Below, piece by piece: positions 50,749 to 56,719 of a stretch of 64,000 nt of DNA. The stretch's first letter is position 1; every line of letters begins with the position of its first letter. The notes under the pieces were generated by a model. It was not told the DNA's origin and searched no databases. It saw nothing but the letters and a program-made list of their open reading frames with translations. The position numbers and the translations under genes were made by a program. Source of the DNA: Sedimentisphaerales bacterium (GTDB lineage Bacteria > Planctomycetota > Phycisphaerae > Sedimentisphaerales > SM23-30); NCBI GenBank assembly GCA_963666285.1, contig OY762711.1; one strand, given 5' to 3'.

Positions 50749-51146
50749 ATTATCCCTATTGTTTGAAAGACACAAATGCATAAATTACCTAATTAGTTAC
50801 AAATAAGAAACTTAAGAGCCGATTAGCCACACAGCCTCAAACAAAACATACCATATATATATATATTATCGACTTATATATGACAGAATATAAATAAATT
50901 ACATCCATAATGAAGAACTCACTAAACAGACATATTAGCATAAAAACTGAAATTTAACACTGAAATACTAAAATCAATAACCGATTTCATATTATTGATA
51001 TCGTAATCGGTAAATATTGGAATTTTATTGGACGATTACCAGAGCATTTTACTGGATATAGCCGGACCAAAACTATATCATTTAGGATGTCGGTTTTGGG
51101 CCGGAAGAATATAGGAAATTCAATATTAACTCGAGAAGGATTTAAC

Positions 51147-53411
51147 ATGAATTCATTACGTATCAGATTATCACTCGTTATTCTACTTACATTTAACCTG
51201 GTAACTGCCTGGGCGGCGACTACATCATCAGAACTCGCCCGGCTTGTACCTGACAATACCATTTTTCTAATCTCTTGCAGCGGTGGCGAAAGCCTTAAAG
51301 CCGATTTCGAAAAAACTATTATAAGTAAGGTATGCCAAGACCCGCAGGTAAAGGTCTTTGTCGAGCAGCTGACAACATCACTCCAGGTAAGCAGTCCGCA
51401 GGTTAACGGCGCTATAAATATGCTGCCGCTGATAATCACTCCCATCCGGGATAGCCAACTGTTGAGCGAACCGCTGGTAATTGGTGCTGCTTATGACAAT
51501 CTTGACATTGAAAATGAGAAAGTAAACGGCTGTATTTATATCGCTGCTGCCGGCGGACCGGATAAGCGTGCGAAAATCCAGAATATGGTCCAGTCGTTCA
51601 GTTTCCTTACCGGCCAGCTAATGAGCCAGGACCAGACCGCGGATGATTACTACCAGTATGACTTCCCCGGAGCGAAATTAATCATGTCAGGCACAGAGTC
51701 CTGCACATTTATAACATTTGGAATGGCTGATAATGCCGATAAATATATGTCCGGCCTGATCGCAACCGCAAAAAAAAGTAACACCCGTAAGCCGGAGATT
51801 ATAAATATATTCGATAAATTTTCCGGCAGAAGCAGTGATATAAAAATTGCGATAAACACTCCCCTGATAATTTCCGAATTGAAGAAACTGCTCGAAATAC
51901 CTGAGATCAAATCCAAACTGGAAAATGATAGCGATGACGCAAAAATTGTTTATGGCTTACTCGACATCATTTCGCCGATGGGCAAGATCGGAGCCAGGAT
52001 CGGATTCAACGACAGCCAGATCGAAGTGGAAAATATTTGCGAGAATTTCGGCAATGTCGTCTTGAATGACTGCATGCTACCGGTCAACAAATCAGTTTTA
52101 AGAGCAGTTTCAAAAGACGTAACCGGCTTTTATCTAACCAATGTAAACCTGGAGAAGGTCATAGAGCAGGTAAAGTCACTTATCTTACAGTTTGACGGAC
52201 AGGAAACCCTGGATGATATAGCCGAAGGACTGGAAGATGCTAAAAGTGAAACCGGTATCGATCTCAGTAAAACCATCTTTACCAACTTTACCGGTGAGCT
52301 GCTTTTTTCATCAAACGGCACACAGACAGCAGCCATGCTCGGCAGTTCAGGCTATGCCATACTCGGAGTTAAAGACTGTGACCTGATGATAGAGACTTTC
52401 CAGAAGCTTATCGAGCTATTAAAAGAAAAAGCCGGTGCCGATATGAAAGTGAGCCTAGTCAAGTCTGAATACAACGGATATGAGATTAATTCTCTAATAT
52501 TGCCGCAGGTTTCGATAGTCGGTCTGCAGCCGGCATTTGCGAAAATTGATGATAATCATATCCTTATCACGAGCAACATATCTGAAGCAATCCCGATAAC
52601 ACAGCTTCTGAAAGCGGCAGACAGCAGTAACAGTATTTTGTCAAACCCTAAATACATTGCCGCTTCGAGTGGATGCCCTGATAACGCTTTTTCGGTTTCT
52701 TATTCCGATACATCCAGAAGCTGGAACGCCTTGAACACCCAGCTTTCAGCCATTTGGCCACTGTTGTCGATGGGGCTGGCCGAACAGGGTATCGTTCTGC
52801 CGCCGATGCTGCCGAATGTATCGTATCTTATGGCTGACGCACCTGGTACTATTTCATGGTCGGCCTTTAAGGATAAGGACTTGATATCGTATAACCGCGG
52901 GCTGGCTGTCAACACATCGATGATGAACGTCAATGGCGGCAGCGCAGCTATAGCAGTATCAATTCTTATGCCGGCATTGTCGCGGGCAAAAACACTTGCA
53001 AAGAATACTGTTTGTCAGACTAACTTGAAGGGGATCGGAGTTGCTACAGTAATATATATGAATGATCACAAGGGAAAAGCACCTGATACTCTTGAAGAAC
53101 TTACCGAAGCAGACCTCACGGAGAAATCAATGATCTGCCCGGAATGTGAAGAGAAATATACCTGGTGCGGTAAGGGCCTGGATGACAGCTGCCCATTTGA
53201 CGCTGTTCTTGCCTACTGCGAATGCCATCTTGATGACGATCTGGGCTATAATGTTCTGTATGCAGACGCTCATGTCGCAAAAGTGGACGAGGAAAAATTC
53301 ATCGAAGTTATGAAAAAGAACAATACAATTCGCAAGCAGCTCGGACTCGAACAGATCGACATACCCGGCACTATCGATGAAACGGAAGTTAAAGAACTCG
53401 ATACATTTTAA
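51147..53411 (+). CDS. Exported protein with C-terminal pilin-like/H-X9-DG (DUF1559-like) domain
   Basis: Signal peptide; ILMPALSRAK..CQTNLKGIG; H...NVLYADAHV. Confidence 0.8.
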   Translation: MNSLRIRLSLVILLTFNLVTAWAATTSSELARLVPDNTIFLISCSGGESLKADFEKTIISKVCQDPQVKVFVEQLTTSLQVSSPQVNGAINMLPLIITPIRDSQLLSEPLVIGAAYDNLDIENEKVNGCIYIAAAGGPDKRAKIQNMVQSFSFLTGQLMSQDQTADDYYQYDFPGAKLIMSGTESCTFITFGMADNADKYMSGLIATAKKSNTRKPEIINIFDKFSGRSSDIKIAINTPLIISELKKLLEIPEIKSKLENDSDDAKIVYGLLDIISPMGKIGARIGFNDSQIEVENICENFGNVVLNDCMLPVNKSVLRAVSKDVTGFYLTNVNLEKVIEQVKSLILQFDGQETLDDIAEGLEDAKSETGIDLSKTIFTNFTGELLFSSNGTQTAAMLGSSGYAILGVKDCDLMIETFQKLIELLKEKAGADMKVSLVKSEYNGYEINSLILPQVSIVGLQPAFAKIDDNHILITSNISEAIPITQLLKAADSSNSILSNPKYIAASSGCPDNAFSVSYSDTSRSWNALNTQLSAIWPLLSMGLAEQGIVLPPMLPNVSYLMADAPGTISWSAFKDKDLISYNRGLAVNTSMMNVNGGSAAIAVSILMPALSRAKTLAKNTVCQTNLKGIGVATVIYMNDHKGKAPDTLEELTEADLTEKSMICPECEEKYTWCGKGLDDSCPFDAVLAYCECHLDDDLGYNVLYADAHVAKVDEEKFIEVMKKNNTIRKQLGLEQIDIPGTIDETEVKELDTF

Positions 53412-53525
53412 TTCCTGAAATATGAGCAGCCTGCATAAATACGTGCGGGCCAGTAACATATAGCCTAGCGAACCGGTGCGGTTCGGCAAATAACATGCCC
53501 CACAGCTGGTTCATATATTAAACTA

Positions 53526-53554
53526 TTGACATTGCTCATTTATGTCGATAGACT
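53526..53554 (+). promoter_or_regulatory. Sigma70-type promoter of metG leader
   Basis: TTGACA-17-TAGACT. Confidence 0.7.
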
Positions 53555-53600
53555 AATATATAGTAATAAACAAATAATGGCATTTACCAAGGAGTTTGTT

Positions 53601-53702
53601 ATGCCGAGCAATTTGACAAAATCAGAATTTCGAATGATGTCTCATATGGAGATGTCAAGGCGGACTCGGTTTGTCTTCTGCTCGGGAACTATGATACTTT
53701 AG
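53601..53702 (+). CDS. Met-rich leader peptide (33 aa)
   Basis: AAGGAG RBS; MPSNLTKSEFRMMSHMEMSRRTRFVFCSGTMIL. Confidence 0.75.
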   Translation: MPSNLTKSEFRMMSHMEMSRRTRFVFCSGTMIL

Positions 53703-53723
53703 ATTCTCTCAGAGCAGAAATTC

Positions 53724-53761
53724 AAGCCCGGAAGTCCCCAAATAGCTTCCGGGCTTTTTTT
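53724..53761 (+). terminator. Attenuator terminator before metG
   Basis: AAGCCCGGAAG..CTTCCGGGCTT followed by T-tract. Confidence 0.85.
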
Positions 53762-53802
53762 ATTTATATAATCATACACAAAAATATAAAAACGAGAATC
53801 AA

Positions 53803-55236
53803 ATGAAAAATCAAATATATATAACAACAGCAATTCCATACGTAAACGGAGACCCGCACCTGGGTTTCACACTCGAACTCGTCCAGGCAGATGTAATCGC
53901 CAGGTACTACCGACTGATAAACACCCAGACACTGTTTCAGACCGGCACAGATGAAAATGCGTTCAAAAATGTGCTCAGCGCCCGCCGGGCCGGCATAGAA
54001 ACCAGTAAATTTGTCAGGCATAATGCCGACAAATTCCTGCGTTTGAACGACAGGCTGAAAATATCGTTAGACAGCTTTATCAGAACCTCATGCAGCAGTC
54101 ATCAATCAGGTGCCCAGCTGCTCTGGCAGCAATGCCGTCAGGAAGACATATACCAGAAAAGCTATACCGGGCTATACTGCACCGGGTGCGAAGATTTCCT
54201 CAACGAAGGCGTGCTAATCGACGGGCTATGCCCCGAACACCGTCAGCCGCCAACCGAAACCAGCGAAACTAACTACTTCTTCCGCCTGTCAGCCTATCAG
54301 GACAAGCTCGAAAAACTTATCTCCGACGACACTATCAGGGTAGTACCGCTGGCCAGGAAGAACCAGGTACTAAGCTTCATCAGAAGCGGGCTGCAGGATT
54401 TCAGTATTTCCCGCAACAGCGACAGGTCCGGCGGCTGGGGTGTGCCTGTCCCGGGTGACCCATCCCAAACGATCTATGTCTGGATCGACGCACTGGCAAA
54501 TTATCTGACCGGGATAGGGTTCGGCACCAACAATTCCTGGCTGCAAACCTGGAACGAACATAGTAAAAAGATCCACGTTATCGGCAAAAACGTATGGAAG
54601 TTCCACGCTATCTACTGGCCCGCTATCCTGCTGTCTGCCGGGCTGCCGCTGCCGAACGAAATAGTCGTTCACGGGTTTCTAACTGAAAACGGATCGAAGA
54701 TAAGTAAATCGCTTGGCAACGCAACCGATCCAAATATACTGATCGATCAGTACGGCCCGGACCCGCTGCGATATTACCTGCTGGCTGAGTTTTCGCCCTT
54801 TAATGATGGCGACTTTTCACTCGACAGGTTTAGAAAGACTTATGAAACCAGGCTGGCTAATACGCTTGGAAACCTGCTCAGCCGACTGACAACTATCTGC
54901 CAGAAATCGTCTTTCAGTAAATTCGATCCTGCCGGCATCCCCCAGGCACCGGACGGATTCCATGATTTTATCGCACAATATCAGCTCGACAAGGCCCTGG
55001 CATTATTGTGGTCTGTCATAACAACACTTAACCAGGATATCGACAACGTAAAACCATGGATACTGATCAAGGAGAATAAACTGGAAACCGTAAGGGAAAT
55101 TCTGCCCAGGTGGCTCGCCCGGCTCGAACAGGCGGCGTACTGGCTAACCCCGTTTATGCCCGACACTGCCGGTACAATCCTAAAAACGATCAGGAGCAAC
55201 CCCATCACACCCGGCGAAATACTATTTCCCAAATAA
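53803..55236 (+). CDS. metG: Methionyl-tRNA synthetase, short form
   Basis: TTAIPYVNG.PHLG, GTDE, Zn knuckle, YVWIDAL, KISKS. Confidence 0.93.
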   Translation: MKNQIYITTAIPYVNGDPHLGFTLELVQADVIARYYRLINTQTLFQTGTDENAFKNVLSARRAGIETSKFVRHNADKFLRLNDRLKISLDSFIRTSCSSHQSGAQLLWQQCRQEDIYQKSYTGLYCTGCEDFLNEGVLIDGLCPEHRQPPTETSETNYFFRLSAYQDKLEKLISDDTIRVVPLARKNQVLSFIRSGLQDFSISRNSDRSGGWGVPVPGDPSQTIYVWIDALANYLTGIGFGTNNSWLQTWNEHSKKIHVIGKNVWKFHAIYWPAILLSAGLPLPNEIVVHGFLTENGSKISKSLGNATDPNILIDQYGPDPLRYYLLAEFSPFNDGDFSLDRFRKTYETRLANTLGNLLSRLTTICQKSSFSKFDPAGIPQAPDGFHDFIAQYQLDKALALLWSVITTLNQDIDNVKPWILIKENKLETVREILPRWLARLEQAAYWLTPFMPDTAGTILKTIRSNPITPGEILFPK

Positions 55237-55289
55237 CACCATACTATCAACAGCAATGCAAAGTTCAGATAATATGAGCTTTGCATTGT

Positions 55290-55754
55290 TTAGTTTTCTT
55301 TTATCGCTTCAGCCATATTTTCCGGCATGTCGGTAATAGTTATCTCGCGTGTGGTTTCGTTTATGTGTTTGATAGTGATATGGATCGGATCATAAGCGTC
55401 AACAATGGTATTAGTACGGTCAGCCCACTCTACCAGTACAATAGCCGGTCCGCAAAGCAGCTCATCGAACCCGATCGCCTCCAACTGGTCGGAGCTCTCC
55501 AGCCGCCAGGCATCCAAATGATAGATCATCAGCCGCCCTTCATACTCGTTCATCAGCGTAAAGGTCGGGCTGGTAACATCTTCAACATCGGGCACATCAA
55601 GCCCGGCGGCAATGCCCTTTATCAGGTGTGTCTTACCGGCACCAAGGTTGCCCACCAGCGACACCAGCGTGCCGGGGGCGACATTACGCCCGATCTGCTC
55701 GCCCAGTGCCAGGGTCTGGGCGATACTGGTACTTGTTATTGTTATACTGCTCAT
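55290..55754 (-). CDS. tsaE: t6A biosynthesis ATPase TsaE
   Basis: GNLGAGKT, VTSPTF, YHLDAWR, VEW. Confidence 0.95.
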   Translation of the reverse strand: MSSITITSTSIAQTLALGEQIGRNVAPGTLVSLVGNLGAGKTHLIKGIAAGLDVPDVEDVTSPTFTLMNEYEGRLMIYHLDAWRLESSDQLEAIGFDELLCGPAIVLVEWADRTNTIVDAYDPIHITIKHINETTREITITDMPENMAEAIKEN

Positions 55755-55843
55755 AGGGTCATATATGATAACAACAGAAACAGAAATTTAAACGAAAAAA
55801 TGATACCGCCAGGCGTTCCCCGACGGCAAAACAGGCAGGAAAA

Positions 55844-56719
55844 TCAGATTTTTCCGGATGATAACGCGACCCAACCGTCATTATCAGGATGAAAATACGC
55901 GTATATCCCCTTGCGGCAATGCTCCATCGTACTCTGCGGATAAAAACAGTTTGTATAGCAGTTACACGACTGGTACAGCTCTTCGACCTCGTCAATACCT
56001 AAAGCCAGGCATTCAAACTCCTCATCAACATCGGATATATACTCCATAACCTTATTGATAACCTGACGAGGCTGAACAACAAACTCGCGGCCAATATGCT
56101 CTTCCGTCAAAAGATAATCCATAACAAACATATTATGATTGTCGTCGGTACTGAACCGGTCAAACAAACCGACAAGGTCGTCTTTGGTCAGGAAATAACT
56201 CAGGCCCTCAGCAACAATAAAAGTCGGCTTGCTCCTGTTATACCCGCAATAAGATTCCAATCGCGAGACCATATCATCATCTCTGACATCGGCCTGCAGA
56301 AAATTTATACGGCCATACAACTCCGGTGCAATATCGGCATACAGCTGGCGTTTACTGATATTGTCAGCCAGATCAACCTCAATAACATTATCGAGCTTAT
56401 TGCCGTATAGATCCAAAGCTTCCAGCGCCAGCGGATCGGCCCCGGCCGCGAGAACAACAAGCTGAAAATGCCCTTCTGTCCGGCGGTTAAACTGTTCCAG
56501 CAGTTTACGGATATAAAACTTACGGTTGATAATAACCTCTGAATACCAGGGGCATATTATATTACAGGACTCTACCAGGTCATAACCCTCGCTAAGGTCC
56601 AACCGGTCAACATACGCCCGGGCGTAGCGATTGCGCAACGCCTCCATGCCCCACAACATCACCAGTGCTGCGGTATGCGATAGTTTTATCCCTGCTTTAT
56701 TTCGATCTGGCCCTGCCAT
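55844..56719 (-). CDS. SAM-dependent methyltransferase (LCM-like)
   Basis: QLVVLAAGAD, EVDL, PTFIVAEGLSYF. Confidence 0.8.
   Translation of the reverse strand: MAGPDRNKAGIKLSHTAALVMLWGMEALRNRYARAYVDRLDLSEGYDLVESCNIICPWYSEVIINRKFYIRKLLEQFNRRTEGHFQLVVLAAGADPLALEALDLYGNKLDNVIEVDLADNISKRQLYADIAPELYGRINFLQADVRDDDMVSRLESYCGYNRSKPTFIVAEGLSYFLTKDDLVGLFDRFSTDDNHNMFVMDYLLTEEHIGREFVVQPRQVINKVMEYISDVDEEFECLALGIDEVEELYQSCNCYTNCFYPQSTMEHCRKGIYAYFHPDNDGWVALSSGKI

Follow-up and report, generated by a model that had tools for sequence, protein, structure and literature searches.

A 64,000-nucleotide stretch of a Sedimentisphaerales genome (phylum Planctomycetota; contig OY762711.1 of assembly GCA_963666285.1), referred to here as the window, carries a gene for a short methionyl-tRNA synthetase (MetRS), metG, preceded by a Met-rich leader open reading frame (ORF) and a predicted intrinsic terminator. 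A sequence-only reading of this region had proposed that the leader is an attenuator which senses methionine. The leader, its homologues and the enzyme downstream were examined by comparative analysis and by modelling of ribosome position. The features of the leader and metG all lie on the plus strand, and positions are those of the window.

The leader and the metG gene

The leader region begins with a promoter-like site of the sigma-70 type (TTGACA-17-TAGACT, 53526 to 53554) matching the consensus at 10 of 12 positions; this site is the joint best of 13 in the interval 52500 to 56500, where 6.2 are expected in shuffled sequence, and is weak evidence taken alone. An AAGGAG Shine-Dalgarno (SD) sequence, read directly from the letters at 53589 to 53594, forms a duplex of −7.5 kcal/mol with an anti-SD motif and leads an ORF of 33 codons (53601 to 53702), whose frame is kept among homologues. 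Six of these codons specify Met (codons 1, 12, 13, 16, 18 and 31, five of them internal). An alternative in-frame ATG at 53577, giving 41 aa, was rejected as it lacks an SD and as the homologues begin at the M-P-S position of the shorter frame. The intrinsic terminator predicted by folding and covariation (53724 to 53761) comprises a 12-bp hairpin (53724 to 53756, −19.9 kcal/mol) and a U run up to 53761; its loop is 9 nt long and it was therefore missed by a simple hairpin scan with a loop limit of 8. All four elements lie where the sequence-only reading had placed them.

Between the start codon and the terminator, the RNA can be divided into segments that pair in alternative ways. Segment 1 (53604 to 53620), spanning the M-P-S codons, is the 5′ arm of a protector (anti-antiterminator) helix detected by covariation and folding; 53604 to 53610 pair with 53679 to 53685, and 53615 to 53620 can pair with 53670 to 53675. 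Downstream lies the cluster of Met codons (codons 12, 13, 16 and 18; 53634 to 53654), the probable stall site according to the ribosome scan described below. Segment 2 (53662 to 53685) contains the 5′ strands of the antiterminator (53662 to 53673) and its inner stem (53676 to 53683) together with the 3′ arm of the protector (53679 to 53685), and is followed by the terminal Met codon 31 (53691 to 53693), which lies near the leader stop throughout the family. Segment 3 (53712 to 53737) overlaps the 5′ arm of the terminator and holds the 3′ strands of the inner stem (53712 to 53719) and antiterminator (53723 to 53737). Seven bases at the leader end (53702 to 53708), termed here the anti-SD segment, are complementary to the metG ribosome-binding region (53794 to 53800) identified by the pairing analysis. 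The antiterminator and inner stem pair as had been claimed. That competing-helix scheme was nevertheless incomplete, having overlooked both the conserved protector, in which the first codons of the leader pair with codons 27 to 29 and compete with the inner stem of the antiterminator, and the conserved second pairing of the leader end with the metG ribosome-binding site. Read from the sequence, the components are those of a classical attenuator, namely, an SD-led open ORF, a cluster of cognate codons, a predicted terminator, an antiterminator exclusive with it and a protector exclusive with the antiterminator.

The 215-nt leader folds with a z score of −4.45, and none of 200 shuffles was equally stable. 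In the 6.35-Mb genome, a terminator-like hairpin follows 58 short ORFs led by an SD, among which the leader ORF has the highest number of internal Met codons. When 38 homologous leaders, the window row excluded, were combined into a DNA profile, it matched the genome at a single site, that of the leader (E = 1e-16). No Rfam family reached its gathering score in the window, the T-box and SAM riboswitch models included, and the leader peptide matched no NCBIfam or Pfam family.

The metG gene (53803 to 55236) encodes a protein of 477 aa with one internal Met (residue 452). The product scored 395 bits against TIGR00398 (cut-off, 336), and its best relatives of solved structure are MetRS proteins. 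Both class I motifs are present as variants, HLGF for HIGH and KISKS for KMSKS, while DENAFKN and GKNVW replace DEHG.KI and GKDI. Pocket residues for Met were assigned by matching motifs to a list in the available text of PMC9071491; P12, D50, W227, A230, L231, Y234, F267 and H268 were invariant in 15 rows, and an Ile has become Val264. On these sequence features the protein is a methionyl-tRNA synthetase predicted to charge tRNA-Met.

The gene behind the leader had been taken simply as metG; it is not the housekeeping copy but a second, nearly Met-free one. The same genome encodes a long MetRS, 30% identical, which has KMSKS, DTHG and 15 internal Met residues, resembles type 2 MetRS and has no match to the leader profile. 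Another metG was present in 14 of 15 carrier genomes checked, the exception being a fragmented assembly. The closest titled relative of the window enzyme (68% identity) comes from a Sedimentisphaerales genome. Short-type MetRS was detected in 4 of 60 relatives (E 1e-60) and, besides the host genome, in none of 400 genomes of the phylum (E 1e-125). Titled carriers include Armatimonadota, Chloroflexota, Planctomycetota, Spirochaetota, Lentisphaerota, Bdellovibrionota and one Candidatus Moanabacter genome. A patchily distributed second copy beside a housekeeping enzyme is one characteristic of an auxiliary antibiotic-resistant synthetase. No neighbouring gene recurred in more than 3 of 68 loci of the clade defined below, indicating that the promoter, the leader and metG move together as one unit and that no Met-pathway operon or producer cluster is involved. 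Homocysteine methyltransferase domains and a Cys/Met pyridoxal phosphate enzyme are encoded elsewhere in the host (G000:C1:5786456-5787292, 297616-298449 and 3943615-3944877), so that the host probably makes Met; the leader profile did not match before these genes. Broken-frame copies of the clade metG were noted at G001:C1:936703-938134 (L088, L089) and at L009 and L017, reflecting assembly error or decay. A Pacearchaeota MetRS outside the clade (L070) has DENASKV with GKDI and a KMSKS-type context, a partial parallel to the pocket change of the clade.

Conservation of the leader, its helices and a Met-poor enzyme

Loci were gathered from genomes (80), metagenomes (80) and relatives (3), with two duplicates dropped. 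The start was located in 154 loci, including the window, and 94 of these carried the motif D[ED]N[AS].KN while 60 did not. Removal of loci that had less than 300 nt of upstream sequence or were 90% or more identical left 68 clade loci and 46 other metG loci. The metagenome loci had been retrieved with the pattern GKNVWKF, which is present there by construction. In a quick tree of 88 rows, the 66 clade rows formed one side of a branch with a support of 100. An SD-led short ORF containing at least three internal Met codons was found at 45 of the 68 clade loci and at 1 of the 46 other metG loci, those in operons being able to have a leader further upstream. When ORFs were chosen by SD strength alone, Met made up 10.4% of codons in the clade and 1.2% in the others. 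The leader family precedes this one short-MetRS clade in at least six phyla. By eye, its consensus is M-P-S, a variable stretch, the Met run, P-R-A-W-S-V, S-G, a last Met and the stop.

The reading frame was examined by anchoring on DNA motifs, with no ORF calling, at the 42 loci where both motifs were found. The distance from the start to the last ATG was a multiple of three in all 42, with ten different lengths, and frame 0 was free of stops in every case (3 and 21 loci for the other two frames). Of 51 homologues, 32 have a promoter site with at least 9 of 12 matches no more than 95 nt from the leader start; in the next interval upstream, the count was 2 of 48. Separately, 22 of the 51 leader promoters, drawn from several phyla, were seen to share CGATA at the start of the −10 box (53546 to 53551 here). 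A terminal Met was present in 38 of 40 scanned terminator-bearing leaders and in all eight terminator-less leaders. After exclusion of 6 mis-called leaders and 5 loci without a call, the Met cluster and terminator occurred together at 41 of 57 clade loci and were both missing at 10, with each found alone at 3.

Pairing was assessed in 43 cluster-type leaders, picked by eye from 63 called, by comparing own with foreign partners and with mononucleotide shuffles. The protector (first codons with the S-G codons) paired better with its own partner in 41 of 43 leaders (z −10.5), the antiterminator in 35 of 40 (z −8.8) and the anti-SD segment, just after the stop, with its metG start region in 25 of 43 (z −5.2). 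Across five control pairings, z ranged from −1.0 to +0.5, indicating that kinship and GC content alone do not create the signal. Pairing of the post-stop segment with the leader's own SD was also considered and was rejected (z +0.5 and +0.4). In a 40-row alignment, paired positions amounted to 88% for the protector, 92% for the terminator and 89% for the antiterminator in the family register, with two-sided changes at 6, 7 and 6 of 9 pairs, respectively. Slid registers scored far below the true registers for all three helices, a comparison that favours the true helices because they were read off one row (L086). The sequence-only reading had suggested looking for Met-rich ORFs before homologous metG genes; such leaders exist, in frame and SD led, with a covarying antiterminator and terminator, ahead of a single MetRS clade.

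Several leaders depart from this pattern. Tandem attenuator-like units with His runs beside the Met codons precede clade metG genes at L107:2200-2500 and L115:2160-2500, possibly forming a His-plus-Met or a double Met sensor. Ten loci (L125, L126, L128, L132, L138, L140, L145, L146, L151 and L156, last 200 nt) have shorter leaders with a weak SD or none and a terminator retained; several of these have a single internal Met, and the ten may be leaderless variants. At L111 and L123, an inverted-repeat element 30 to 210 nt before metG lies between the terminator and the gene and pushes the attenuator upstream.

The enzyme itself has lost nearly all of its cognate residue. Among 62 clade proteins of 400 aa or more, the mean was 0.7 internal Met (residues 4 to 470) and 39 had none; in 46 other short MetRS, the mean was 6.5 and the minimum 2. 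KMSKS has become KI[SG]KS in 60 of the 62. Met was the most depleted residue (ratio 0.11, about ninefold), followed by Lys (0.43). Sulfur sparing was rejected as a cause since Cys was not depleted (1.24). Base composition was rejected by a control within the same genome, in which just 2 of 747 frames of 400 to 560 aa were equally Met-poor; the comparison set of MetRS proteins differs in Lys and Arg. A separate search returned 119 proteins, 109 with a usable anchor, which averaged 0.57 internal Met and had none in 73 cases; their ranking followed similarity to the window protein, but identities of 52 to 78% cannot force a Met-poor result. In these 109 proteins, DEHG.KI has become DENA.KN in 100, a change that falls at the auxiliary pocket to which synthetic inhibitors bind, and GKD has become GKN in 105. 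The long branches within the clade indicate that Met is being kept out and that its scarcity is not simply inherited. The available text of PMC4209129 reports that biosynthetic enzymes needed during shortage of an amino acid avoid that amino acid (e.g., TrpA without Trp) and reports no low cognate bias in Met pathways (median 0.1, P 0.2). Avoidance of the amino acid in short supply is shared with the clade, but that survey concerned biosynthetic pathways, whereas the bias here is in a synthetase, is about ninefold and reaches the KMSKS motif.

Related enzymes, 41 to 44% identical to that of the window, are encoded on plasmids of Rhizobium, Sinorhizobium, Agrobacterium, Streptomyces and Embleya, indicating that cultured hosts exist. 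They formed the sister group of the window clade (support 99, quick tree of 41 rows). All 8 plasmid loci fetched, from 33 to 34 records matched, encode enzymes with 0 to 3 internal Met behind a leader of 15 to 23 codons with two or three tandem Met codons, and the five enzymes inspected have DDNSLKN and KI[SG]KS. The rhizobial leaders end in a predicted, mostly U-tailed hairpin; two streptomycete hairpins lack a clear U run. These leaders did not match the DNA profile of the window family and by eye look leaderless, with a −10-like box directly before the ATG.

Ribosome position and the proposed switch

Folding was modelled with a ribosome placed along the leader of the window and of 40 homologues, the transcript being cut at the decision point where the 3′ arm of the terminator emerges. 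With the ribosome 2 to 6 codons short of the last cluster Met, a position that corresponds to the first Met codons, the antiterminator was predicted in 32 to 38 of 40 homologues. This number fell to 14 and 4 at the final two cluster positions and to 1 to 5 over the ten codons past the cluster, as compared with 20 when no ribosome was present. For the window, the antiterminator persisted through codon 19 and was lost at codons 21 to 28. In naked transcripts ending at the leader stop, the protector formed in 35 of 40 homologues and with a probability of 1.0 in the window. In this model, the earlier proposal that stalling at the Met codons frees the antiterminator agrees with the prediction for the first cluster codons but not with that for the last cluster Met, where segment 2 is already covered. 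Similarly, its statement that full translation melts the antiterminator holds for a ribosome at codons 21 to 28 or so and fails at codons 32 to 34, where the strand is free again (probability of about 0.9).

These results, together with the conserved anatomy, suggest that the leader is very probably a ribosome-read attenuator that senses charged Met-tRNA and controls a back-up MetRS. The sensed species would be charged elongator Met-tRNA. When this is plentiful, the ribosome would pass the Met cluster and cover segment 2 during synthesis of segment 3; once the ribosome has gone, the protector (start codons with codons 27 to 29) would hold segment 2, the terminator would form and transcription would stop near 53760. 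When Met-tRNA is scarce, a ribosome waiting at codons 12 to 16 would prevent the protector from forming, and segment 2 could then capture the 5′ arm of the terminator before the 3′ arm emerges, allowing the polymerase to read into metG. On the long message, pairing of the leader end with the metG ribosome site would act as a second and weaker lock, which a ribosome could loosen from the last Met or, by way of the inner stem, from the Met cluster. The back-up enzyme, which could be made when most proteins stall because it needs at most a few internal Met-tRNAs, would restore charging of Met-tRNA and so close a feedback loop.

Several observations weigh against this attenuation model. At equilibrium, the terminator was favoured by a mean of 11 to 16 kcal/mol at every ribosome position, so that the switch must be kinetic, resting on the order of folding; comparison of equilibrium terminator and antiterminator energies was accordingly rejected as a description of it, no switch being obtained. 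Folding order was represented here by equilibria of truncated transcripts, and the ribosome was assumed to mask −18 to +11 relative to the A site. Segment 2 is already covered when the ribosome sits at the last cluster Met, hence the low count of 4 of 40 at this position. The antiterminator strand is free again with the ribosome at the terminal Met (26 of 38 homologues) or the stop codon (30 of 40), and naked window RNA ending at 53740 to 53748 favoured the antiterminator (0.92) over the protector (0.00); shut-off would depend, therefore, on timing and the protector, and some basal read-through is to be expected. The z values of the pairing analysis are inflated by kinship and GC content of the homologues. 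In the window and its two closest relatives, the antiterminator register is shifted from that of the family. Finally, the ilvB and leuA leaders of Streptomyces looked like attenuators yet failed mutation tests, as related in the available part of PMC1262725.

The second lock was examined in read-through RNA of the window, where the protector with the anti-SD pairing (0.54) alternated with the inner stem (0.41). A ribosome at codons 12 to 13 removed the anti-SD pairing (0.10 and 0.00). This lock is weak, another point against the model: opening the site cost 4.7 kcal/mol, or 2.9 with a ribosome on the first cluster Met. The same opening-cost calculation was applied to eight terminator-less loci, three of them titled Bdellovibrionota, which form one branch (support of 99 in the Shimodaira-Hasegawa-like approximate likelihood ratio test); a similar ninth leader of terminator-less type, L116, lies apart in the tree. 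The eight loci lack the Met cluster and the terminator and keep M-P-S, the protector, the last Met and the anti-SD segment. Their post-stop segments prefer their own metG start in 7 of 8 cases (z −3.6). Opening the site cost 9.9 kcal/mol on average, and 7.3 or 6.7 kcal/mol, depending on the footprint, once a ribosome sat on the last Met; three of the eight (L129, L134 and L158) showed almost no drop. These calculations are suggestive of control by translation only in this branch.

Alternatives, purpose and known systems

The terminator-less branch raises the question of whether control is mainly translational throughout the family, as in cat and erm, with the metG site unmasked by translation of the leader or by a ribosome pausing at its terminal Met and the terminator setting only a low basal level. 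Pairing of the post-stop segment with its own metG start in both leader types would fit such a scheme, as would retention of the protector, terminal Met and anti-SD segment where the terminator is missing and the fall in opening cost caused by a ribosome on the terminal Met. However, the effect in the window is about 1 to 2 kcal/mol, foreign partners were beaten at only the 25 of 43 cluster-type loci noted above, and the three loci named above show almost no drop. The terminal AUG may, in addition, persist partly through pairing with the metG start region, and the covariation of the antiterminator is left unexplained; mainly translational control is considered improbable. A general sensor of ribosome slowing or an arrest peptide, in which PRAW and SG would act within the exit tunnel while the Met codons would be incidental, could account for conserved positions outside the Met run (MPS, RAWS and SG). 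These positions make up the paired strands and show compensatory changes, the leaders of the sister clade share little besides the Met run, and the regulated protein has been purged of Met specifically, making this explanation very unlikely. Least credible of all is a chance arrangement of an ordinary leader, a premature terminator and an untranslated ORF. Short SD-led ORFs followed by such a hairpin do number 58 in the genome, and two besides the leader contain four internal Met codons, but chance is contradicted by conservation of the frame, Met codons and helices at about 45 to 68% enzyme identity.

A different question concerns what the attenuator would be for. The same switch could serve defence: the back-up enzyme would be insensitive to a natural inhibitor, amino-acid analogue or toxin blocking the housekeeping MetRS, and the leader would report the loss of Met-tRNA, as is said to occur for the auxiliary TrpRS of Streptomyces. 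This possibility, to which we give something over a one-in-three chance, divides the attenuation model by purpose and does not replace it. The patchy spread of the clade (4 of 60 relatives, 0 of 400 other genomes of the phylum), the lack of a conserved neighbour and the plasmid location of the sister clade are consistent with defence. The DENA.KN changes fall on residues corresponding to the auxiliary pocket of Staphylococcus aureus MetRS (Asp51, His, Gly, Lys56 and Ile57, according to the available text of PMC9071491), which is suggestive. On the other hand, the known drugs that bind the auxiliary pocket are synthetic and are described in the available part of PMC8165550 as poor on type 2 MetRS, the type which the long housekeeping copy resembles. 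For the four plasmid copies with annotation, no adjacent biosynthetic cluster is recorded. Two further points count against defence: to our knowledge there is no natural MetRS inhibitor, although no dedicated search was made, and no paper was found on the resistance mutations I57N and G54. Inhibitor defence and plain starvation are about evenly balanced as purposes. More tentatively, the locus may be one copy of a mobile rescue cassette, present in at least eight phyla, that combines a Met attenuator (transcriptional and translational, or translational only) with a pocket-remodelled MetRS, purged of Met as far as KMSKS, and gives protection against a natural MetRS inhibitor or toxin. If so, the leader would be a ready-made reporter for finding the compound.

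Leader-peptide attenuators are well known from E. coli pheM-pheST and from trpL, hisL, leuL and thrL. The window leader shares with them the four-segment logic of 1:2, 2:3 and 3:4 pairings, the run of cognate codons and the U-tailed terminator, and with pheST a synthetase as target. It differs in that AUG is the codon sensed, segment 1 is formed by the leader's own start codons, the ORF spans the whole of segment 2, and the target is an accessory, Met-purged enzyme. Met genes are otherwise controlled by T-boxes and SAM riboswitches, with which this locus shares a premature terminator before a Met-related gene; here there is no Rfam match, and what has been conserved is an open reading frame containing AUG codons. 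Vecchione and Sello are reported to have described in 2010 an attenuator before trpRS1 of Streptomyces coelicolor, which encodes an auxiliary, antibiotic-resistant TrpRS. That system is reported to be alike in having a second-copy synthetase, a cognate-codon leader and ribosome-mediated attenuation of transcription; the amino acid is Met here and not Trp, resistance is a possibility only at this locus, and depletion of the cognate residue and a predicted anti-SD layer are present here, neither of which is known for trpRS1.

Met has been a textbook gap among leader attenuators because every leader starts with AUG and because Met genes use T-boxes, SAM riboswitches or MetJ. Leader peptides before duplicated synthetases outside the Proteobacteria have been found comparatively, as His leaders before hisS paralogues in bacilli (PMC2965389, available text) and as predicted trpS2 and leuS attenuators of Streptomyces (PMC1262725, available text, which also names attenuation of pheST). 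The words metG and methionyl do not occur in the available text of either paper, and according to PMC1262725 the Met operons of actinobacteria are not preceded by a conserved RNA element. In the literature searched, largely outside the subscription journals, nothing turned up on either a Met leader-peptide attenuator or a Met-free MetRS; the sequence-only reading had also known of no well-characterised Met example. A conserved and covarying family of Met attenuators would fill this gap. Avoidance of the cognate residue by a synthetase, to the point of rewriting a class I signature, independently points to production under scarcity of Met-tRNA. The cassettes in cultured Rhizobium, Sinorhizobium and Streptomyces make the hypothesis testable, and the leader, used as a biosensor, could report on the charging of Met-tRNA or on natural MetRS inhibitors.

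Some features flanking the locus were also noted. Upstream, a protein of 774 aa is encoded on the plus strand at 51087 to 53411; it matches DUF3352 weakly, and its C-terminal segment looks pilin-like by eye, as is common in planctomycetes. Two short inverted repeats at 53424 to 53490, between this gene and the promoter, are probably its terminator region. Downstream, a 16-bp hairpin at 55252 to 55290, between metG and the convergent tsaE, is likely to act as a two-way terminator.

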